From a virus (lineage: Duplodnaviria > Caudoviricetes), in the IMG/VR virus record IMGVR_UViG_3300025131_000288, positions 1-29,202 of that record: 29,202 nucleotides of DNA; one strand, written 5' to 3'. Below the pieces are notes generated by a model. The model was not told where the DNA came from and did not search any database. It saw only the letters and a list, made by a program, of their open reading frames with translations. Each line of letters begins with the position of its first letter. The stretch's first letter is position 1. Both the position numbers and the translations under genes were made by a program. Positions 4,133 to 25,116 of the stretch are shown one piece after another.

Positions 4133-4867
4133 CTATTTGTGTTCTGAAACTAATTTGCATAATTTTTTAAAATATTCTAATGAATGATTATTCTTCATTT
4201 TATTAATGTCTTTATGGACCCATTGTACGTTTCCTTCTATATATCCTAATGAATTATCAATACGATCTAAAGATGCAGTTTCTTCTCGTACTTTTTCTTT
4301 TTTTCGGCTTTGCTGCCCAAATTGTATATCCATACCAGTTAACGCACATTTTTTGTTTTGAGCTAAAAATAAATCCCATATATATTTTTTATCAACATTA
4401 TGTTCTATATCACGAGTTTCTGCGTTTCTTTGTATTCTGCCTATTGTTGTTCCTGAGATATCCTCTATCCCGATAAAAGATGGATGTCTGCTTCCGCTAG
4501 GGTTTTCTAAGCATCCACAAGATTTTCTACCCGATTTTAACGCATGTGAACTGACTATAATCTCTTTCCCACAAGCACATTTAGTATTCCAATAAATAGT
4601 TCTTTTGTTATTTTTTAGTCTAGAAATAACAGTTAGATTTCCAAATTTATCACCAATTTTAACAAATAAACTAGCACATCCACAAGATTTAGGTGTATAT
4701 TTCCTTAAAACATCGCTTCTATAACTTTTCATCCGACCGCAATCGCATTTACATAACCAATAAGTCGAATTGCTGTTTCTTTTAATACGTGTGTTCTCGT
4801 CTACGCTGACAACTGTTAATGTTCCAAACTTTTTACCAGTAATATCTATTTTTTTGGCTCCTCTCAT
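4133..4867 (-). CDS. Free-standing HNH-type homing endonuclease
   Basis: Two repeats of G.KFG.LTV...W.C.C.CG...SCGC; C-terminal CALTG...ASLDRIDNSLGY..GNVQWVHKDIN.MK; AGGAGA RBS. Confidence 0.85.
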   Translation of the reverse strand: MRGAKKIDITGKKFGTLTVVSVDENTRIKRNSNSTYWLCKCDCGRMKSYRSDVLRKYTPKSCGCASLFVKIGDKFGNLTVISRLKNNKRTIYWNTKCACGKEIIVSSHALKSGRKSCGCLENPSGSRHPSFIGIEDISGTTIGRIQRNAETRDIEHNVDKKYIWDLFLAQNKKCALTGMDIQFGQQSRKKEKVREETASLDRIDNSLGYIEGNVQWVHKDINKMKNNHSLEYFKKLCKLVSEHK

Positions 4868-4947: not shown

Positions 4948-7900
4948 CTAATTGCACGCAGAGAATCCGCAGTTTTTGCACATTTTGCAACCTTGTTCAC
5001 GTATTAATTCATTTCCGCATTCTTCACATTCTTCGCCATTTACTTTTTTACCATCGTCAATATATTTTTTAAGCGATCTGGCTATAGCCTTTTCAAATGA
5101 TCCAAAAGAAGCTGATTTCGTTTTTTCTAATTGTTCTACTACAAACGAGATATCTGCTCCATGTCTTAGATTAGAAGAAACGAGTCTTGTGATAGCCTCT
5201 TCCATGTCGCCTGACTCATCCATTATATTCTCTATTTCGGCTCCTTCAGACGTAATGAGTTTATAATGTCCTCTCTTAACTTTTTTGAGCATACCTGTTT
5301 TATGAGCTTTGGGTATTTGCCCATTTTTAAGAGCAAAAATTTCATATGGGTCGTCAGACAAAAGCCCAACTACGGTAAGGTAGTCTTGTCCTTTGACGGA
5401 AATATGATAAATATCACATGGTAAAACCTTTGGTCTTTTAGGAGCATCATGTTTATCAATGTTATCAGCATCTCTTGGGATGCAGTTGCTATCATTGGCA
5501 ATAAGAACTCCAGTCCTAGAATTTTCTCGATAAACAGTAATCCCTTTGAGTCCCGCTTTCCATGCAGCTTCATAGATATCAGCCACTTCTTCAGTTGTAG
5601 TCTCTTCTTTGAGGTTTATAGTGGACGATATTGAATGATCTAAATTTCTGCCTGCGGCAGCTTGCATTTGGATTCGTCTTTTCCAATCTATATCTTCTGC
5701 ACATGCACCAAACCAGGGGGATTTTGTTATATCTGTTTCTCCAGTAACGTCCATCCACATTTTAACTTTAGAATGATAGACAGTAAACTCTTCCCATGAA
5801 TCTCCGTTTTGGTCTACAAAATCAACTCTAGTATTTTTATCACTAGGATTAATCTTCTTTCTTCTCTTATATTCCATTTGGAAAAGAGGCTCGATTCCAG
5901 ATGTTGTCTGAGTTAAAATGCTCACGCTACCAGCAGGAGCAGACGTAAGAAGTCCTATATTCCTTCTGCCATACTTTCTCATATCTTTATATAGTTCTGG
6001 ATCTTCTTCTTTTATTCTCAGCAAGAATGGATTATTCTTTTCAAGATTATAACCCCAAATTTTAAATGGTCCTAATTCTTTTGCCATGTCTACAGAACTT
6101 CTATAACATCCAAGTTTCAAGGTTCTATAAATTTTTTCTGCTGTTTTGATTCCTTGCTTGGAACCATAATCAAGACCTAACGCTGCAAGCGTATCCCCTA
6201 GCCCCGTTGTTCCTGTTCCAGTCCTTCTCCCCGTTTCACAGACTTCGCGTATTTCTCTCCAAAGCGACAATTCAACCAGTTTGATTGCCTCTGGCTCTGG
6301 ATCTTTATCTATCTTATCTATGATTTTGTCAATACATTCTAACTCAAGATCTATTACATTTTCCATAAATCTTTGAGCAACTTGTGCATCTTTATGGAAT
6401 TGTTCAAAATCAAATTTGGCATTTTTAGTAAAAGGATCTATAACATAACTGAAAAGATTTAATAACAGTAATCTACAGGAATCACAAGGACTTAAAGGTA
6501 CTTCGCCACATTGTAGTGCAAAAATACCATCAAATATATCATTTCCTGATTTATTTTTCCTGATATCAGTGATAACTCCTACAGTATGATTGTCATCCAC
6601 AGTTATATTATAAACATCTTGTTTTTTTGTGATATATTCTATTTTAGTAACTTTATGATTGTAGTCTGCTGCTAATTCTTTAATTTCTGTGAGATTTTTA
6701 AAACCATATTTTGTTCGTAACCTAAACGAAACATTTTCTTTCTTGCAAGCGTTTTCCCATTCTTTAAGAGATGGGTTTTTAATAGGATTATCAAAAGTTA
6801 ATTTAGAATAAATTCGCACTTGATCATTTCTCGTTTTTATAGCTTTCTTTTCATATGTATTATTGATCGAGTTAGTTCGTGTTTTATTAGTCCCTTTTTC
6901 GTTTGCATGATAATTACTGCAAGATATGCTACAAAAACTGATTTCTCTATGACTATAATCTACTTCGAAAGAATTTCCGCACCACTCACATTTGCGTATA
7001 ACTTTAACTTTGTTCTGATCTATCCTTGCGTCATATCTCTGCTTTGTTGCCTTTTGAAAAGTTTTTACAACTCTTGGATCTTTATCTGCATGTTCTATAC
7101 CGCACTCATTTGCAGCCCATTTAGCTAGATCTAAAATATTTTTAAACCATCCATTAGTTCTAAAGCTAGAAAGTCGTTTGGGTATTTTTTTATCTTTAAC
7201 AAAATTGAACCAGTCATTTTTAGTAAAACGTCTATTTATTTTTTTAGTCAATGTTATTGCAAATTGTTCTATATCTTTATTTGTGTATCCAGAATATCTG
7301 CCATTTTTTTCTCCTGAATTATCTTTTTTTGCATGATATTCTTTGTGTTCTGAAAACGTCATAATGTCTAAATTATTTGGGTCATTATTTAATCCATCAT
7401 AGTCTTTATGATGTACAACAATGCCACCTTTTACCCAGCCATCTTGTTTGTTTATATCATATAAAGTATTCCATTTATCAGTGTCCATAAATTTTGCAAT
7501 CAACCTATGCTCATAGATTTTGTCTTTTTTAGAGTTTAAAGCGTTACAATACGTTCTATAGTATTCTTTCTTGTTAGTTTTAACAATTTTTTCTGGCCTT
7601 TTAATGAACTTAAATAAACTGTCACCGCTTTTTAATTCTTTCGCCTCTCTGGTTTCACCTGTTTTTAGAGGGAATTTGTGATCATGGGTTACATCGATGT
7701 GAGATCCATTGTCAAAATGGACTCGTACCATTTGCTTATTGACTCCGGTCTTTCTGGGATTTCTTCCCCATTTAATAGATATTTCTCCATTATTGGGGTT
7801 AACAGAATATACTGGTACGTCCATTCCTTCTTTTGCTAAATCTTTAAGAGAGACAGCATTTCTTCCATCAGCTACTGCAATTAATGTATCTCCGCTAAAA

Positions 7901-11181: not shown

Positions 11182-11835
11182 CTATGGTTCTAACTCTACG
11201 TCCCAATAACCAAATTCGTTCCACTGGTCAGTACGAACGAAATATTTCCATTCTTTTGGAAGTTTTTGACCAAAGGTATATAAGGGATTCCAATGAGGTT
11301 CTCTGGGAGTACTAAGCAACTTAAGCCCTGCTTCTTCAGGAGTTCTTCCTCCTTTTTCAACATTAACTTCAAAAGTCGAGATAACGACATTATCCCATGT
11401 AGTTAATCCACCGCGACATTTTGGCATAATGTGATCTATTGTTCCAGTTCTAGAAGTTACTTTTTTGGCGGTATATTGACATCTGTATCCATCTCTAATT
11501 AAAAGATTTCGTCTTGTAAGTCTAACTCTAGTGTGGGGAATTTTATTGTATTTTTGAAGGACAACAATTCTTGGAAGTCTAACTTTAAATCTATTAACGT
11601 TAAGCCATTGATAATCTCCGTAAATAGATTCATCATCCTCAATGGGAATTGAAAAGAGGTCGGACCAATCGCTCCATGTCAAATGTTGAAACGTTTCGTT
11701 ATCTACGTATTTTGCACGAAAAGAAAATACTTTATTTAATGTTTTATACAGAGGTGTAAAACCAATAGCATCTAAGCTTTTGTTTAGAACAAGCGTAGGA
11801 CTATTTATTATATTATTATTGGTTTGTGTTGTCAT
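11182..11835 (-). CDS. HNH endonuclease (McrA/HNH_5-like)
   Basis: TLVLN...TRRNLLIRDGYRCQY...TIDHIMPKCRGG..TWDNVV...N..KG.RTPEEAG; three of the four usual Zn-binding cysteines appear replaced. Confidence 0.85.
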   Translation of the reverse strand: MTTQTNNNIINSPTLVLNKSLDAIGFTPLYKTLNKVFSFRAKYVDNETFQHLTWSDWSDLFSIPIEDDESIYGDYQWLNVNRFKVRLPRIVVLQKYNKIPHTRVRLTRRNLLIRDGYRCQYTAKKVTSRTGTIDHIMPKCRGGLTTWDNVVISTFEVNVEKGGRTPEEAGLKLLSTPREPHWNPLYTFGQKLPKEWKYFVRTDQWNEFGYWDVELEP

Positions 11836-12335
11836 TTCTCTAGAATACTGTTAACCTTATTTATGAAGTTTTCATTTTTGTCTACAAAGTATATTTCAAG
11901 TATGTTATCGTATTCTTTAGCATGTTTTACCATTATGTTTGCAACCAAAGAATATTCTAAAGATCCTACTCCAGTTCCCAACGCTGTCATAGCCACAGAT
12001 TTTATATCATCTAATAATAATCGCTCAAACACGCTTTTTATCGCTTTCGAAATTATATTTAGACTTGTATATCCACCAGGATATCTCATGGTTACGGCAT
12101 GATAAATATATTTTACACTATTTGTAGACAGATCGCCGGGTCCAGTCACGTAACATTCGCCAGCTTCTTTATTCTTATTTTTGCATATCCTTCTCGCTTC
12201 ATTTTGTATTTCTATACCACCAGCACGCCGAATAGATCCTGCAACTCCTCCCCCCATAACACCAATGCCATTAGCAGCATTGACTATTACGTCTGTATGT
12301 ACGTCAACTATGTCTCCCACAAAAGCATTTATCAT
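11832..12335 (-). CDS. Macrodomain protein (ADP-ribose binding/hydrolase)
   Basis: GDI, DVIVNAAN, GGGVAGSI, IYHAV, ALGTGVG. Confidence 0.93.
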   Translation of the reverse strand: MINAFVGDIVDVHTDVIVNAANGIGVMGGGVAGSIRRAGGIEIQNEARRICKNKNKEAGECYVTGPGDLSTNSVKYIYHAVTMRYPGGYTSLNIISKAIKSVFERLLLDDIKSVAMTALGTGVGSLEYSLVANIMVKHAKEYDNILEIYFVDKNENFINKVNSILEK

Positions 12336-13348: not shown

Positions 13349-13445
13349 AAATCGGGAAAAAGATTACATTTCCCGATTTTGTCAAAAAGTTTATGCTTAA
13401 AATCATAAAAATAGAGATTATCGGGAAATGAGTAAATTTCCCGAT
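13349..13445. repeat. Two near-identical palindromes TCGGGAAA-N8/9-TTTCCCGA upstream of pncB
   Basis: At 13349-13379 and 13420-13445, each followed by a T tract on the + strand. Confidence 0.8.
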
Positions 13446-13496: not shown

Positions 13497-14663
13497 ATGG
13501 CTAGAATAACATCAAAATTAGATAATGATCTTTACAAGATTACAATGGGTGCTGCTGTAGTCAAATTATACCCAAATGCTAATGTAAAGTATTCTCTCTT
13601 CAATCGAGGCGGGACTGTCTTCCCAGAAGGATTCGCAAAAAAACTCAGAGAAGCAGTAGATGAAATGGCATATCTCCCTGATTTGAATGCCTCTCAAATA
13701 GCATGGTTAAAAATCAATTGCCCATTTCTTTCTAACCCTTATATAGATTTTTTCGTAAAATATAAATATAATCCAGAAGAAGTAGTAATATGGCAAAATG
13801 ATGCTGGAGAACTTAGCGTCATCATAGAAGGTCCATGGTACAGCACAATCTATTGGGAAGTTCCTCTTATGTCTCTCATTAGCGAGTTATATTTCGAAAT
13901 GACAGGACAAAAGCCCAATGACAACTATGAAGAAATCGCCAGAAAGAAAGGCAAAAGACTTGAAGAAATGGGAGCGTACTTCGCTGATTTCGGTAGTCGT
14001 AGACGCTTTTCTCTCAGAGTCCACGATTATGTCGTTAACGAATTGAAAACATCGAAAACTTTCATTGGAACAAGTAACGTTCTTTTGGCATACCTCTACG
14101 GAGTTAAGCCCATTGGGACAGAAGCTCACGAATGGATTATGTTCCACGCCGCTAAATACGGATACAGAATGGCTAACTCAATCGCTCTTGGACGATGGGT
14201 TGATGTCTATCACGGCGATCTTGGTATTGCATTGACAGATACATTCACAACCGATGACTTCTTCAAATCGTTTGACATGATGTATGCTAAACTATTCGAT
14301 GGAGTAAGACATGATTCCGATGATGCTATAGTTTTCGCAAATAAAACTATCGCTCACTACAAAAGACTTGGAATCGATCCGTTGTCGAAAACTATCATCT
14401 TCTCCGATGGACTAAACGTCGATGAAGTAAAAAGGATTCATGAATTCTGCAAAGGAAAGATTAAAGACGGTTACGGCATCGGAACACATTTTTCCAACGA
14501 TGTTGGAGTAAAGCCTCTTAACATAGTTATTAAAATGATAGCGGCTCAACCTAACGGTCAAGAACCTTGGGTTAATACATGCAAGCTTTCTGATGTTAGA
14601 GGAAAACATACAGGAGCAATCGAAGCAATCGAACTTTGCAAAACTACATTAGGAATTAAATAA
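13497..14663 (+). CDS. pncB: Nicotinate phosphoribosyltransferase
   Basis: LDNDLYKITM, ADFGSRRRFS, GTSNV, GTEAHEW, ALTDT, GVRHDS, IFSDGL, GIGT, NIVIK, KLSD..GK. Confidence 0.95.
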   Translation: MARITSKLDNDLYKITMGAAVVKLYPNANVKYSLFNRGGTVFPEGFAKKLREAVDEMAYLPDLNASQIAWLKINCPFLSNPYIDFFVKYKYNPEEVVIWQNDAGELSVIIEGPWYSTIYWEVPLMSLISELYFEMTGQKPNDNYEEIARKKGKRLEEMGAYFADFGSRRRFSLRVHDYVVNELKTSKTFIGTSNVLLAYLYGVKPIGTEAHEWIMFHAAKYGYRMANSIALGRWVDVYHGDLGIALTDTFTTDDFFKSFDMMYAKLFDGVRHDSDDAIVFANKTIAHYKRLGIDPLSKTIIFSDGLNVDEVKRIHEFCKGKIKDGYGIGTHFSNDVGVKPLNIVIKMIAAQPNGQEPWVNTCKLSDVRGKHTGAIEAIELCKTTLGIK

Positions 14664-16384
14664 TGAAAATAGTAATCGCACAAACCAATACTACGCCTTT
14701 GGATTTTCAAAGCAATACAGACCAAATTAAACTTGCAATGGAAACGGCTCGTGCTGATACGACTATCAGTTTGGTCGTAACGCCTGAACTTTCAATTCCA
14801 GGATACCTTGTAAAAGATCTAATGTACAACCACGATTTTGTTGAACAGAATTTAAGATGGTTACAAGAGATCGTTACGTTCTCGGCTGGAAGTCAATACT
14901 CTACCGTTGTTGGATACATCGACAAGAATTATAATGGTCGAGGTAAACCTTTCCGTAACATGCTTGCAGTTATAAAAAACGGGACAGTTGTAGCTCGATA
15001 CCAAAAACAACTGTTACCGTTCTACGATGTGTTTGACGAAGGGCGATATTTCGAACCTGGCAATAAATTAGCGGTTGTCGAAATAGACGGAGAAAAATGG
15101 GGATTAGCAATATGCGAAGATATTTGGAACGATAAAGATACCGACGATTATAACTATAAAACTAATCCTCTCGCTCAATATCGTGAAATGGGCATTCATA
15201 ACATTATTAGCATCAATAGCTCTCCGTATGTTATGGGAAAGCCTGCCGAACGAATTAAAACGTTAAGAGAAAGTTTTGCGAAAGGGACTTTGATCTATGT
15301 CAACCAAATTGGCGGTCAAGACGATCTAGTTTTTGATGGTCACAGTCTTATCGTAGAAACTGGTAGAGTTACGTATAAGGCAGAAAGAACTATCAAATCT
15401 ACGTCCCATGTCTGTACGACAGGTAACGAACACTATATAGATGTAGACGTAATGGAGAAGGTAAAGGGAAGCGAAGAAGATCCGATTGGATTACTTTGGG
15501 ATATGCTCATTCTCGGATTGAGAGATTATATCAAAAAGAGCGGATTCAACTCTGTCGTTTTCGGAAGCTCTGGCGGAATCGATTCAGCCGTAATTGCAGC
15601 ATTAGCTTGCGATGCTATCGGAGCAGAAAATGTTTACGGAATAAGAATGCCAAGCATCCACAGTAGCGATCACTCCTTAGACGATGCAAAAAAATTGCAA
15701 AAGAATCTTCAATTCAACGATTCTCTTCTTCCAATCAAACATATAGAATTGTTGAGCGAATACAATAAAGTCTTTGCCAAGATCAAAGACGATAAAGGCT
15801 ATAAAGGCTATAATGATGTAGCAGACCAAAATATGCAAGCTAGAATTCGCGGAGCAGCCGTAATGCATGCTTCTAACGCTTTTGGTATGCTTCCTCTCAG
15901 TACAGGCAATAAATCTGAATTGTCAGTCGGCTACTGCACAATCTATGGAGATATGTGCGGAGGATTCGCTCCTATCAATGATGTTTACAAAACCATCGTT
16001 TATGCTTTAGCTGAATACTTCAATAAGAAAAATAAGAAAGAGTTAATCCCTGTTAACATCATAAGGAAACCGCCAAGTGCAGAACTTGCTCCTGATCAAA
16101 AAGATGATGACAATTTATTGCCATACGAAATCTTAGATCCGATTCTTTATGCATACATCGAATGTTATATCGGCGATTTCTATGAATTCATAAGTACTGA
16201 TGACCTCCCAGAAGAAGTAAAAGTCTGGGCTGTAACGCCAAACGCAAAAGCTCAATACGATAGAATGATATCGTTGGTTGATCGTACAGAATTCAAACGC
16301 CGACAAGCCGCTCCCGGTATCAAAGTATCAAAAGTTTCGTTCGGTACATCGAGAAGAGTTCCAATAGTTTTTAAGAAACGTTAA
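14663..16384 (+). CDS. nadE: Glutamine-dependent NAD+ synthetase
   Basis: Nitrilase domain with intact E/K/C triad (TPEL, YQKQLLP, ICED); synthetase motifs SGGIDS, QARIR, TGNKSE, PPSAEL, EFKRRQ. Confidence 0.95.
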   Translation: MKIVIAQTNTTPLDFQSNTDQIKLAMETARADTTISLVVTPELSIPGYLVKDLMYNHDFVEQNLRWLQEIVTFSAGSQYSTVVGYIDKNYNGRGKPFRNMLAVIKNGTVVARYQKQLLPFYDVFDEGRYFEPGNKLAVVEIDGEKWGLAICEDIWNDKDTDDYNYKTNPLAQYREMGIHNIISINSSPYVMGKPAERIKTLRESFAKGTLIYVNQIGGQDDLVFDGHSLIVETGRVTYKAERTIKSTSHVCTTGNEHYIDVDVMEKVKGSEEDPIGLLWDMLILGLRDYIKKSGFNSVVFGSSGGIDSAVIAALACDAIGAENVYGIRMPSIHSSDHSLDDAKKLQKNLQFNDSLLPIKHIELLSEYNKVFAKIKDDKGYKGYNDVADQNMQARIRGAAVMHASNAFGMLPLSTGNKSELSVGYCTIYGDMCGGFAPINDVYKTIVYALAEYFNKKNKKELIPVNIIRKPPSAELAPDQKDDDNLLPYEILDPILYAYIECYIGDFYEFISTDDLPEEVKVWAVTPNAKAQYDRMISLVDRTEFKRRQAAPGIKVSKVSFGTSRRVPIVFKKR

Positions 16385-16525
16385 AGGAATGTTTACGATA
16401 ACAATGTAATATTATAGAAGTGTCCGACCATTACTTCGAGATACTACTATAAAATTGTTAGGGATAATTCCTGTTTCTGAGTAATGGCTGAAACGGGTTT
16501 TATCCCTATTTTATTTGGAGCAACA

Positions 16526-16870
16526 ATGCGGATAGATCCTAATGATATAATAAATAAAAAATACAATATGTTAACTGTGAAAAAGTATGATGGATTTATG
16601 CTCTTGGAACCAAAAGGAAAAGGCATTTTTATATTTGCGAATGTAAATGCGGAGGAATCAAATTTGCCTATTTTTTTACCAAAAGGCGGTAATGATTGGG
16701 ATCATGAGAATACTGCATCTTTAGATAGAATCGATAGTAGTAAAGGATATGTAAAAGACAATGTTCAGTGGGTTCACAAAGATATTAATCGTATGAAATG
16801 GAATTTTCCTCAAGATAAATTTGTTAAATTATGTTCTTTTGTGGCAAATAAAATAATGGATGAGAAATAA
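16526..16870 (+). pseudogene. Decayed HNH endonuclease, same family as 4133-4867
   Basis: GGAG RBS and ATG at 16526; the HFYICECKCGG motif lies in a shifted frame; the central part is missing; C-terminus TASLDRIDSSKGYVKDNVQWVHKDINRMK closely matches the 4133-4867 protein. Confidence 0.8.
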
Positions 16871-16928
16871 AGTCGCATTTGGTACCGGCAGAAGGATGCC
16901 CATTGTTAAAAACTCAAATAAAGGATAA
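16869..16928 (+). pseudogene. Orphan alternative 3' end of nadE (KVAFGTGRRMPIVKNSNKG*)
   Basis: Parallels the functional NadE end KVSFGTSRRVPIVFKKR* (16331-16384); its stop lies 1 nt before the NUDIX ATG. Confidence 0.85.
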
Positions 16929-16929
16929 A

Positions 16930-17487
16930 ATGAAAACAACTAAACGAGAAGTAATCACAGAACGTCCGTTCTTGAACCTTATGGAAGCAACATATGAACA
17001 TGAAGGCAAAGAAGGAAAGTGGACCTATGTGAGCAGATCAACTACAGAACCTGAAGGATGCGATGCCGTTATGATCGTTGGTTTGATGAGAGATCCTCAT
17101 AGATTAGTTCTAATCAAACAATATAGAGTTCCTGTTGGCGATTATATTCTAGAATTCCCTGCTGGACTTATAGATGAAGGAGAGACAGTAGAAGATACAG
17201 CTAAAAGAGAATTCGAAGAAGAAACAGGCATGAAGGTAAAAAAGATTCTGACCGTTAGCCCTCCAACATACAATTCAGCAGGACTCACAGACGAAACAGT
17301 GGCTATGGTTTTTGCAGAAGTCGAGGGAGAACCTTCTACCGAAAAAAATGAATCTGCTGAAGATATAGAAATACTTGTTTTAAATACTAAACAAGTGGCT
17401 GATTTAATAGATGATGAAACGGTTAAATGGTCTGCTAAAGGTTGGCTTTATAGCGGTATGTTTGTAAGAATAATGTCTAATTTTTGA
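16930..17487 (+). CDS. NUDIX hydrolase, ADP-ribose pyrophosphatase-like
   Basis: Nudix box GLIDEGETVEDTAKREFEEETG, preceded by KQYRVP...LEFPA; AAGGA RBS supports ATG 16930. Confidence 0.88.
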   Translation: MKTTKREVITERPFLNLMEATYEHEGKEGKWTYVSRSTTEPEGCDAVMIVGLMRDPHRLVLIKQYRVPVGDYILEFPAGLIDEGETVEDTAKREFEEETGMKVKKILTVSPPTYNSAGLTDETVAMVFAEVEGEPSTEKNESAEDIEILVLNTKQVADLIDDETVKWSAKGWLYSGMFVRIMSNF

Positions 17488-21299: not shown

Positions 21300-21658
21300 T
21301 TAATGTATTTTACTTAAGAGATCAAACGTCTCTTCTTCATTTGTTAACGGGGCATGTACCCAATTTGGTTGATAGATCAATTCTACTGAAGCTAAACTTA
21401 TAACTACTGGTCCATCAATATCGTCTTCTCGTTCTGGCGTTTCTCTACTACTTTTGCCAGAAATTTCAACGCATTAGCAAGTACAATTTCGAATGGTGAT
21501 ATGTCAAGTGATATACCACGATACTGGTATCTGTTACAAAGAGTTGCTACTTTTTGTCCCAAATAAGATCTTGGTACACTGTAACTTTTACTGATTCTAT
21601 TAACTAGTTTTTCATTCGTTACAACTGCACGTTTTTCTTGGTTCTTCTCTTCAGCCAT
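21300..21658 (-). pseudogene. Sm-like paralog A, frameshifted near 21470
   Basis: After LANA the homology continues in another frame as VEISGKSSRETPEREDDIDGPVVISLASVELIYQPNWVHAPL...*; a 7-nt deletion relative to paralog B. Confidence 0.8.
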
Positions 21659-22867: not shown

Positions 22868-22989
22868 TACCAGAGAAGGGAGTCGAACCCTCAAGTCCCG
22901 AAGGACAACGGATTAAGGAATTCTCGTTATCAGGTTCATTCTGCAAGAATTCATTAAGTCCGCAGCGGTTGCCATTTCGCCACTCTGGC
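22868..22989 (-). tRNA. trnL: tRNA-Leu(TAA) interrupted by a 39-nt insertion (22915-22953)
   Basis: Acceptor GCCAGAG/CTCTGGT, stem GCGGA-CTTAA|AA-TCCGT, long variable arm, GAGGG TTCGACT CCCTT. Confidence 0.8.
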
Positions 22990-22997
22990 TGATTAAC

Positions 22998-23078
22998 TAC
23001 TCCTAACTTGATTCGAACAAGTAAACCCGAAGGTACAGACTTTTGAAATCTGAGCGGTTGCCATTTCGCCATAGGAGC
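22998..23078 (-). tRNA. trnL: tRNA-Leu(CAA)
   Basis: GCTCCTA/TAGGAGT; CAGAT-TTCAAAA-GTCTG; variable arm ACC-TTCG-GGT; T arm ACTTG/CAAGT. Confidence 0.85.
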
Positions 23079-23084
23079 GTGTAA

Positions 23085-23171
23085 CGGAACGAGTAGGATT
23101 CGAACCTACGTGACCCTTTCAGGCCAACGACATTAGCAGTGTCGCGCAATAATCCACTCTGCCATCGTTCC
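23085..23171 (-). tRNA. trnS: tRNA-Ser(GCT)
   Basis: GGAACGA/TCGTTCC, discriminator G; CGACA-CTGCTAA-TGTCG; long variable arm. Confidence 0.92.
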
Positions 23172-23175
23172 AAAT

Positions 23176-23311
23176 AACAGACTAACGTTAGAAAATGGTA
23201 CTGGACTCGAACCAATATACTGTGGTTTTACCTTCACAGCTAGGAAATCACACATACGTGCTTGCAATTCTGCGTTTGCCATTTTCGCCAACTATTTTCA
23301 GTTAGTCTGTT
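23176..23311 (-). ncRNA. tRNA-like RNA with no canonical anticodon loop, flanked by an 11-bp inverted repeat
   Basis: D arm TGGCGAAAATGGCAAACGC and T arm ATTGG-TTCGAGT-CCAGT; AACAGACTAAC/GTTAGTCTGTT termini. Confidence 0.65.
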
Positions 23312-23318
23312 AATTAAA

Positions 23319-23404
23319 CGGATGGTACAGGGGTCGAACCTGTAAGGCTTTCGCTCGTCTGTTTTCAAAACAGGTGCCGTCGCCAACTATCGGCTTGACC
23401 ATCC
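23319..23404 (-). tRNA. trnS: tRNA-Ser(TGA)
   Basis: GGATGGT/ACCATCC, discriminator G; CTGT-TTTGAAA-ACAG; long variable arm; atypical 3-nt acceptor-D junction. Confidence 0.88.
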
Positions 23405-23411
23405 AATTTAA

Positions 23412-23482
23412 AGACCCATCCCAGAATCGAACTGGGGTCTGTTCTTTTGCAGAGAACCGACTTACCACTTGCCCAATGAGTC
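23412..23482 (-). tRNA. trnC: tRNA-Cys(GCA)
   Basis: GACTCAT/ATGGGTC, discriminator U; GTTCT-CTGCAAA-AGAAC. Confidence 0.9.
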
Positions 23483-23485
23483 ATA

Positions 23486-23560
23486 TACCCTCGACAAGAT
23501 TCGAACTTGCAATATCTTGGACCTAAACCAAGTGACTTTCTCCATTTTGCCTACGAGGGC
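23486..23560 (-). tRNA. trnL: tRNA-Leu(TAG) with a short variable loop
   Basis: GCCCTCG/CGAGGGT; CTTGG-TTTAGGT-CCAAG; 5-nt variable loop. Confidence 0.88.
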
Positions 23561-23565
23561 GTATT

Positions 23566-24718
23566 TTATTTTAACCATTTTCTGATAGCATTATCAGATA
23601 CTCCATATTTTCTTCCGGTTCCACAGTAACCTAATTCTTTTATTTCATCAAGCAACTGTTCAGTAGAAGGTCTATTGCTAACTTTTCTATTTATGGGACT
23701 TAATAAGTAACATTTCCTGCATATTGTGTGTTTTGAGTTTTCGCTAGTAGGATCACCACAAATCTTGCATTTTAATGTTTTGCGATCTCTATCATATTTT
23801 ATCTTTTTATCGTGTTTTATTTTTTGTTCAGATTTAGATTTTTATTTTAACTCCTAAATCGGTTAAATCCTCCCACCATTTATGAGTTAAATTTTTTGCT
23901 CGTTTTCCTCTACAAAACGTATCAGTTTGAGCATCACAATTCGGGCACAATAATCGCAAATTACCTTCTTCGTTATTGCAACAGTCTCCATCTATGTGAT
24001 CCAATCTTAATCGCAATGGTTTATTGCTCCATGTATTAATCCCACAAATTGAACATCTATATTCTCTTTTTTTACTTAAAATAAGTCTTTTCATTAAAGA
24101 ATGTGTTTTCGCACTGCTTCCTTTAGCAAACGCTTCGTCCCATGGAGTTTCTGTCTTCTTTCCTTGTCTATTTATCCTTTCATCTGTAAATCTAGTTTTA
24201 CCTTTTGACCAAAGCATACCTGTAAAATGATCTATGTTTATATCAAAAGTATCAATTAATTTTTTGATAGCGGAATATTTACTTCCATGATTTTTATCGA
24301 ATCCAAGTTTTCCAAGAACCTCTCTTATACTAACAGATGTTTTTACAGCGTTTAATAATTCTAACTTATTAATATCTTTAACTGCTTTATATCTTTTTAA
24401 AGATTCGTAATCTAAACCAAATTCAAAGCATTTTCTTTTTAGCTCTCTATAAGTTGTTCCACTTAATCTTTTTTCATCATAATATTTAGTTGTAATAAGG
24501 ACTTCGCCTTGTTTCTTGTGAGCTTTCTTTCTATCAAGTAGAGCTTTTTCGTCCATTCTACTATCGACAGACATTACTTTCCAACCATCATCCCATTCTC
24601 CATCTATGTGAAGCTCTAGGATACTATTCCTTTTAGCATATTTTTCGGGAATCCAACGAACGTCTTGGATCATGCCATTCTTTGTCTTTTTTATTAGTTT
24701 GCATTGTTTGTAAAACAT
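23566..24718 (-). pseudogene. tRNA-array HNH endonuclease, fused to an upstream small gene and frameshifted near 23840
   Basis: ORF 23834-24718 has CSICG...LDHIDGD..NN...NLRLLCPNC; the +1 frame continues to 23566 with CKICG..CRKC and the HTH-like tail RPSTEQLLDEIKELGYCGTGRKYGVSDNAIRKWLK. Confidence 0.75.
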
Positions 24719-24732
24719 TTTACTTTCCTTAC

Positions 24733-24823
24733 TGGACCCTGATGGAATCGAACCATCTACCCAACCACCACACAGAATTATAATGGGCGCGAGTTTTACA
24801 GACTCGTGTGTGGAGCAAGATCC
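24733..24823 (-). tRNA. Non-canonical tRNA-Tyr(GTA) lacking a D arm
   Basis: GGATCTT/AGGGTCC, CGAGT-CTGTAAA-ACTCG, GATGG-TTCGATT-CCATC; D arm replaced by 10 nt; variable region about 32 nt. Confidence 0.75.
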
Positions 24824-24913
24824 TTATTTAGTTATAAAAATTCTCTTACTGGGATTTACTGGAAATTAATGGGAAAACGAAAGGGGAAATTTAGAGCAAA
24901 TCCGGAGTATGTT

Positions 24914-25024
24914 TTAGAGACATAAACTGGACAGCAAGAGAGATGAATAATACGATGATAGAGACTGAGCGACTACGCCAGCGGCGTTCTGTCTGTCAGT
25001 CGTAATGTTGTTTTGAGTCTTCAT
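24914..25024 (-). CDS. Putative leader peptide MKTQNNITTDRQNAAGVVAQSLSSYYSSLLLSSLCL
   Basis: 36-codon ORF between a sigma70-like promoter and the first tRNA; the last 16 codons are only S/L/Y/C. Confidence 0.75.
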   Translation of the reverse strand: MKTQNNITTDRQNAAGVVAQSLSSYYSSLLLSSLCL

Positions 25025-25086
25025 TTTTCTATCTCGTTTATTTATGCATGCCTTTGATTGAGCATGCTTCTAATTTCAGTATCGGT

Positions 25087-25116
25087 ATTATAACCGATCT
25101 TCTATACACATTGCAA
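25087..25116 (-). promoter_or_regulatory. Sigma70-type promoter of the tRNA array (TTGCAA-N18-TATAAT)
   Basis: Near-consensus hexamers; a GCATGC hairpin (about 25046-25067) lies at the predicted transcript 5' end. Confidence 0.65.

Follow-up and report, generated by a model that had tools for sequence, protein, structure and literature searches.

A small open reading frame (ORF) upstream of a viral tRNA gene block appears to read the codons of the very amino acids that the block serves. In the window, i.e., the whole 29,202-nt stretch of DNA analysed here (a virus record), a 36-codon leader ORF (24914..25024, minus strand) lies between a promoter-like site and a set of minus-strand genes for Tyr, Leu, Cys, and Ser tRNAs. 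Its last 16 codons specify nothing but Ser, Leu, Tyr, and Cys. It is very likely that this leader is translated and controls the tRNA block by sensing codons. Its mode of action is less certain: on balance, folding models lean toward a ribosome-read attenuator that would act through a long-range terminator stem and gate the Tyr/Leu/Cys/Ser block by negative feedback. The initial annotation had proposed a tRNA-sensing leader attenuator with a Rho-dependent output. Leader control is backed by conservation and by co-variation, but the Rho output fits the data worse than the long-range stem does.

The window also carries genes for a FliA-type sigma factor, an intein-containing ribonucleotide reductase, NAD salvage enzymes, and a lysozyme-like protein, and marine metagenomes contain DNA that is near-identical to it. 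Because a 37-kb near-copy was estimated by CheckV to be only 8% complete, the window's virus points to a giant phage. Homologues of the sigma factor gave no resolution of the host. The genes for NAPRTase, NAD synthetase, and NUDIX proteins form a single plus-strand cluster (13497-17487), which is accompanied by a macrodomain gene (11832-12335).

The amino acid composition of the leader ORF is sharply divided. Its first 20 residues lack Ser, Leu, Tyr, and Cys, and the 16-codon sensor tract (24917..24964, minus strand) contains no other residues, the codon list being exactly as in the initial annotation, with five of the six Ser codons and five of the six Leu codons sampled. When the bases of the 48-nt tract were shuffled 200,000 times, an unbroken series of 16 such codons arose once; as the amino acid set is dictated by the tRNA array, this test left no free choice. 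Over the six frames of the whole window, the next-longest Ser/Leu/Tyr/Cys run comprises 10 codons. Other low-complexity runs (16 to 18 residues drawn from four amino acids) are present in the window, none of this particular set being longer than 10. The synonymous spread of the tail (12 distinct codons) is not itself unusual, given the phage codon usage (P = 0.11). All seven anticodons of the array are served within codons 25 to 35, and the initial annotation had claimed a readable codon for each in the tract; by established decoding rules, the TCC and CTC codons need four-way wobble.

The proposed promoter was recovered as a sigma-70-type promoter-like site with an 18-nt spacer (25087..25116, minus strand; 10 of 12 matches), whose -10 hexamer and -35 element are invariant in three lineages. 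It is the best among 14 matches in the region, 10.7 chance matches being expected overall. The ribosome-binding site of the leader ORF is weak, so that the coupling of leader translation to transcription is an assumption. A second copy of the promoter, together with the first ∼30 transcribed bases, was detected in L182 (about positions 100-184, oriented) and in record 2 of run X18, where it is followed by unrelated sequence and lies upstream of a 430-aa gene; this copy is absent from the window.

The ORF is retained with unchanged frame and length in three lineages, represented by the window, L002 (88% DNA identity over the leader), and L179, and one variant has been gene-called in JGI/IMG. 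Two matches, one of them a third 36-aa variant, came from a profile search across 1.84 billion proteins. A degenerate pattern of the tail matched six metagenomic sequences, each of which is a true leader: three are of the window type, one corresponds to L002, and two are copies of the third variant. The array was seen behind five of these, and the remaining contig ends first. Within the ORF, contigs from four DNA runs were free of variants. The three lineages share tRNAs Tyr(GTA), Leu(TAG), Cys(GCA), Ser(TGA), Ser(GCT), Leu(CAA), and Leu(TAA), with Ser(TGA) of L179 called at a relaxed threshold and its Ser(GCT) recognized by eye. The tRNA bodies are strongly divergent, L179 has a different upstream gene, and the insert behind the Tyr gene is HNH-like, IscB-like, or absent. 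Variable sites number 15 of 57 in the head of the ORF versus 2 of 48 in its tail (Fisher P = 0.003; three lineages), and no indels are found in the 111-nt ORF, compared with several in each flank. Both tail changes remain within the Ser/Leu/Tyr/Cys set, a weak result, as 59 of 144 random changes would do the same, and the conservation of the tail is not separable into codon constraint and pairing constraint.

Searches farther afield returned few additional leads. Among cultured phages, tblastn with the leader peptide gave no match, and blastn matched only tRNAs and one HNH-like stretch. A 15-base hairpin pattern hit 119 stretches of viral contigs, with a leader match in only the two known copies. 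Relatives reached through a 134-aa gene (42 to 58% identity) have no such array nearby. In bacterial and archaeal genomes, all six matches to the tail pattern were judged to be chance ones, none coming with the ORF and five being antisense to an open frame. The upstream ParB-like gene (labeled by eye) was tried as a leader marker and discarded, since 14 of 16 loci lack the leader, which is found at only the two known relatives, and L179 has another gene in this position.

Leaders matched to their tRNA blocks were identified in other viruses. Genome G007, reached via a 43% homologue of the window's upstream gene, has 47 tRNA matches, and 4 of its 11 tRNA sub-blocks are located behind a short ORF and a plain terminator made of a hairpin and U residues. 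When the window is added to these four leaders as a fifth case, the true leader-block pairing scores highest among 120 permutations, and every block amino acid (24 of 24) is present in the leader of its block, with the G007 ORFs chosen by eye among 3 to 7 short ORFs and the other seven sub-blocks assigned to the preceding leader. The G007 leaders (C1) are at 21342, 27171, 40874, and 48755, and the second block contains a tmRNA. Tunturi 5 (PP885688), described in the available text of PMC11924767, is a cultured phage of Tunturiibacter psychrotolerans X4BP1 with 43 tRNAs. Judged by eye, a leader and a terminator precede 3 of its 11 sub-blocks, and one leader has 15 consecutive Ser/Leu/Tyr/Cys codons ahead of Leu, Cys, Tyr, and Ser genes; the ribosome-footprint model showed no clean switch on this Tunturi 5 leader.

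The only route to the complete 83-kb virus G020 was a shared 20-mer of tRNA-Cys; the virus is probably archaeal, as it carries PCNA- and RFC-like genes. Its two tRNA blocks split all 20 amino acids between them, each behind a matched short ORF (C1; L155, 4807 and 6474). The matches are 18/21 (P = 7.5e-7) and 21/22 (P = 0.002), as against 3/21 and 1/22 when the leaders are crossed. These leaders form long helices without an obvious hairpin and U terminator. G020 also encodes TGT-like, queuosine-transporter, and CCA-adding genes. By eye, no matched leader was seen at the 11-tRNA block of G009, at the Met (three copies), Lys, Pro, and Arg genes of the relative G001, or at the Tyr/Ser/Cys block of the unrelated L049. 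Co-variation of leader and array is seen in the unrelated viruses G007, Tunturi 5, and G020; the leaderless arrays indicate that the device is not universal and that Ser, Leu, Tyr, and Cys genes can be grouped without a leader.

These data bear on the view that the leader is an untranslated structured RNA, or a gene for a small peptide with its own function, in which a pyrimidine-rich strand happens to read as Ser and Leu. Translation of the ORF is judged from the sequence, its ribosome-binding site is weak, and the tail is base-paired, so that pairing alone could conserve it. The view nevertheless appears quite improbable: it has to accommodate a frequency of 1 in 200,000 obtained even at the tract's own base composition, an ORF free of indels between indel-containing flanks, and matched leaders with quite different amino acid sets in G007 and G020. 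A peptide with its own function is also at odds with the freely changing head. Hydropathy over 19 residues peaks at 1.05, a low value for a membrane toxin, and there was no match in a Pfam search; a type I toxin appears improbable. Neither a T-box riboswitch (no Rfam match at the gathering score or at E<=1) nor a tmRNA (no tRNA-like ends and tag frame in the window by ARAGORN and Rfam) was detected.

The minus-strand block behind the leader comprises the seven tRNAs named by the initial annotation, of which ARAGORN detects five. The first is a Tyr(GTA)-like gene (24733..24823) that was missed by ARAGORN and by Rfam at E<=1. It has ∼10 nt in place of the D arm and a long, G-U-rich variable arm; L002 and L179 carry canonical Tyr genes here, which differ from each other. 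Next comes a 294-aa ORF (23834..24718), a small conserved gene fused to an insert that we take to be HNH-like from a motif judged by eye; the ORF had no Pfam match. The insert is missing in L179 and L180, and L002 has instead an IscB-like ORF (5974-7383; labeled by eye) whose 5′ region is structured and which sits in the same small gene between Tyr and Leu. An open frame without an ATG (23566..23793; 75 stop-free codons, zinc-finger/HTH-like, no Pfam match) is probably the tail of the HNH-like gene in another frame.

The remaining tRNA genes are Leu(TAG) (23486..23560) and Cys(GCA) (23412..23482), both found by ARAGORN, Ser(TGA) (23318..23405, called), Ser(GCT) (23084..23172) and Leu(CAA) (22998..23078), again ARAGORN predictions, and Leu(TAA) (22868..22989), called with a 39-nt insertion in its anticodon loop. 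An intron-like hairpin insertion of 37 to 39 nt is found in this loop both in the window (22989-22868) and in L002 (8618-8742). In two relatives, the Tyr(GTA) and Leu(TAA) genes of this block are canonical. The two Ser genes flank a tRNA-like RNA (23177..23309; z = -2.4) with a long closing stem and a T arm and no clear anticodon, and its homologue in L179 (about 4192-4312; z = -5.2) shares a loop motif with it. This element has no Rfam match, and a near-identical copy was called as His by ARAGORN in intron mode. Its presence as an eighth, tRNA-like member makes the assertion that the array encodes "exactly" Tyr, Leu, Ser, and Cys tRNAs slightly too strong. A tRNA with a CTA anticodon ("Pyl" in ARAGORN), possibly an amber suppressor, was called in L001 (3633-3707) and L002 (11737-11811) and not in the window.

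The leader RNA is predicted to be unusually stable (z = -4.9; 0 of 200 shuffles as stable), and its minus-strand elements are arranged around the ORF. A 7-bp 5′ hairpin (25046..25067) retains 7/7 pairs in three sequences with a single one-sided change. Directly 5′ of the start codon, a purine-rich strand (25031..25042) pairs with codons 22 to 27 (24959-24946), and 12/12 pairs are invariant. The nested hairpin noticed earlier within the ORF is indeed predicted, at codons 8 to 19 (24970..25002); it has 10 pairs, two one-sided changes, and none broken, and could serve as a pause hairpin. A small hairpin is predicted around the stop codon (24908..24924; longer in two relatives), followed by a spacer helix (24852..24903; 13/13 pairs kept) with a C/U-rich loop (24886-24871), a candidate delay line and/or rut-like loop. 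Overall, seven helices are kept in the three variants, with 98.3% of 180 cells paired. Only four one-sided changes and no two-sided change were seen in 60 pairs from just three sequences, so covariation proves nothing yet.

The most suggestive prediction is a long-range stem. Codons 28 to 31 (24932..24941, minus strand) are predicted to pair with the 10 bases (24851-24842) that precede a U-tract (24841-24834; the 3′ strand and U-tract together span 24834..24851). The resulting closing stem would complete a three-way junction, stack on the helix of the spacer, and be worth -12 kcal/mol; none of 400 synonymous recodings or 400 codon-order shuffles reached the natural pairing. A standard terminator scan gave no minus-strand match to a local hairpin with a U run, in line with the earlier statement that there is no obvious intrinsic terminator, but that statement is doubtful because the predicted long-range stem ends at the U-tract. 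The U-tract is weak (6/8 U in two lineages, 5/8 in L179), and its 8-mer is identical to the one behind a hairpin at window position 13444, another terminator candidate. Three copies of a short CCA-x-UAA motif at 10-nt spacing are found ahead of the U-tract (24871-24842).

The effect of a ribosome was modeled with an assumed footprint of -15/+12 nt. In the window, the modeled stem probability is 0.99 without a ribosome and with one at codons 1 to 16, 0.00 to 0.01 at codons 25 to 36, and 0.96 at the stop codon. The respective values without a ribosome, at codons 25 to 36, and at the stop codon are 0.9, 0, and 0.87 in L002 and 0.98, ≤0.11, and 0.92 in L179. Opening of the stem under the modeled ribosome is a trivial consequence of occlusion by this assumed footprint. 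With a footprint of -12/+9, the stem partly re-forms at codons 35 and 36, and with -17/+13 its probability at the stop codon is 0.69 in L179. In L002 and L179, the stem stays closed with the modeled ribosome at codons 21 to 24. No alternative stem for the 3′ strand was consistent across ribosome positions and lineages, leaving no candidate for a 2:3 antiterminator.

The promoter, the ORF, the matched codons, and the conserved helices can be read from the sequence, and from them we infer ribosome loading, a race with the polymerase, and termination, as follows. A ribosome would load on the nascent leader RNA and, with fast decoding of Ser, Leu, Tyr, and Cys codons, would arrive at the stop codon before the polymerase completes the 80-nt spacer. 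Left free, codons 28 to 31 would then form the stem with the 10 bases that lead into the U-tract and stack on the spacer helix, and transcription would end 10 nt ahead of the first tRNA. Scarcity of any sensed tRNA would make the ribosome linger on codons 25 to 36 and cover the 5′ strand, letting the polymerase enter the array, with no need for an antiterminator hairpin in this scheme. The newly made tRNAs would speed up leader reading and shut the block again. Once made, codons 22 to 27 could hide the weak ribosome-binding site, so that only the first, coupled ribosome would translate the leader; a similar pairing exists in the trp leader.

The same sensor could potentially act through Rho, which would load on the C-rich tail and spacer once the ribosome leaves and would be blocked by a slow ribosome. 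Over 124 nt, the tail and spacer have 32 C versus 13 G, along with 28 YC steps, so the composition of the C-rich, G-poor tract noted after the stop codon fits a rut site; the C/U loop is retained, with variable length, in all three lineages, and the U-tract is weak. However, the region is mostly predicted to be paired, leaving a loop of ∼20 nt that is alike with or without a ribosome in most modeled states. Furthermore, the sole switching element ends exactly at the U-tract, and other terminator candidates of this phage have equally modest tails. A Rho output is therefore unlikely.

Alternatively, leader translation could affect processing or decay of the pre-tRNA and not elongation, with the closing stem masking or exposing a nuclease entry site by the first tRNA. 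The stem ends 18 nt ahead of that tRNA, a canonical terminator is absent, and the G020 leaders are likewise long helices with no obvious hairpin and U-tract. This option is nonetheless the least probable of all, given the plain terminators behind such leaders in G007 (4/4) and Tunturi 5 (3/3, by eye).

The attenuator proposed here resembles those of trpL, hisL, pheL, thrL, and ilvL in placing a short ORF with a run of regulatory codons between the promoter and the operon. As in these classical systems, the regulatory codons match what the operon supplies (16/16 here), a predicted hairpin, here a candidate pause element, precedes the codon run, the predicted terminator ends in U residues, and slow decoding is proposed to cause read-through. 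The thrL and ilvGMEDA leaders are also multivalent, sensing several amino acids. Unlike in the classical systems, the downstream genes encode tRNAs and not biosynthetic or charging enzymes, so the loop would report tRNA supply; isoacceptors are sampled; the system is viral; and the predicted terminator has its 5′ strand within the ORF, with this strand closing a three-way junction. The 1:2, 2:3, and 3:4 hairpin scheme of leader-peptide attenuators such as pheL (PMC3082878, available text) also differs, as no local 3:4 terminator hairpin and no 2:3 antiterminator is predicted here. In the absence of a local terminator, an antiterminator, and an enzyme operon, the leader would work like the classical attenuators without being one of them.

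Several other systems share parts of this design. The leader peptide pheM of pheST senses the level of charged tRNA and, as proposed here, controls a part of the translation apparatus, but that part is a synthetase, one amino acid is read, and the system is cellular. In tnaC and mgtL, the position of the ribosome on a short ORF decides Rho termination, and a C-rich tract follows. In the present leader, by contrast, no conserved nascent-peptide stalling motif was seen, the peptide head varies, and the C-rich tract is mostly predicted to be paired. T-box riboswitches likewise sense tRNA status and control termination, whereas here the sensing would be by translation. In the available texts, pheM was not found in PMC3082878, and the catalogued bacterial uORF attenuators (PMC11550727) include none on tRNA genes. 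A literature search brought up no description of tRNA genes under the control of a leader peptide, although subscription journals and supplements may contain one, and no match for uncoupled transcription.

A reason for phages to carry tRNAs when host tRNAs are cut is supplied by counter-defence, which has been described for the T5 tRNA-Lys versus PARIS (PMC11464382) and put forward as a hypothesis for phage tRNAs (PMC10264068); the words "leader" and "attenuat" are absent from the main texts of both papers. In the available texts, bacterial Schlafens cut tRNA-Lys or many tRNAs, and human SLFN11 is cited as preferring type II tRNAs (PMC13056530, PMC13462974). No bacterial nuclease specific for the Ser/Leu/Tyr/Cys set was found in these sources, in which the known targets are mainly tRNA-Lys or broad (PMC13056530, PMC13462974, PMC11464382). 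For the present block, the trigger could be cleavage of host tRNAs by a nuclease. Amino acid starvation would give the same signal, and extra tRNA would be no cure for it. A more general, tentative possibility, which we rank clearly below the attenuator itself, is that bacterial and probably archaeal viruses possess a tRNA-gene homeostat, in which each block is gated by a codon-matched leader. In the window, it would be free of an antiterminator, with sensor codons doubling as the terminator 5′ strand and the 80-nt folded spacer as a timer. It might then provide an inducible counter-defence against a nuclease destroying Ser, Leu, Tyr, and Cys tRNAs; which tRNAs come under attack could then be read from the leader tails.

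If gating by the leader holds true, the phage would make Tyr, Leu, Cys, and Ser tRNAs on demand, and tRNA genes would join enzyme operons as targets of attenuation; the predicted stem also suggests a kind of terminator that escapes standard prediction. It has long been asked why phages have tRNA genes, and a leader that measures the codons of its own block makes this a matter for experiment; the same Ser/Leu/Tyr/Cys module is present in Tunturi 5, a cultured phage for which there is a host strain. Whatever conditions turn the block on, be it nuclease attack, starvation, or late-infection demand, would show what phage tRNAs are for.
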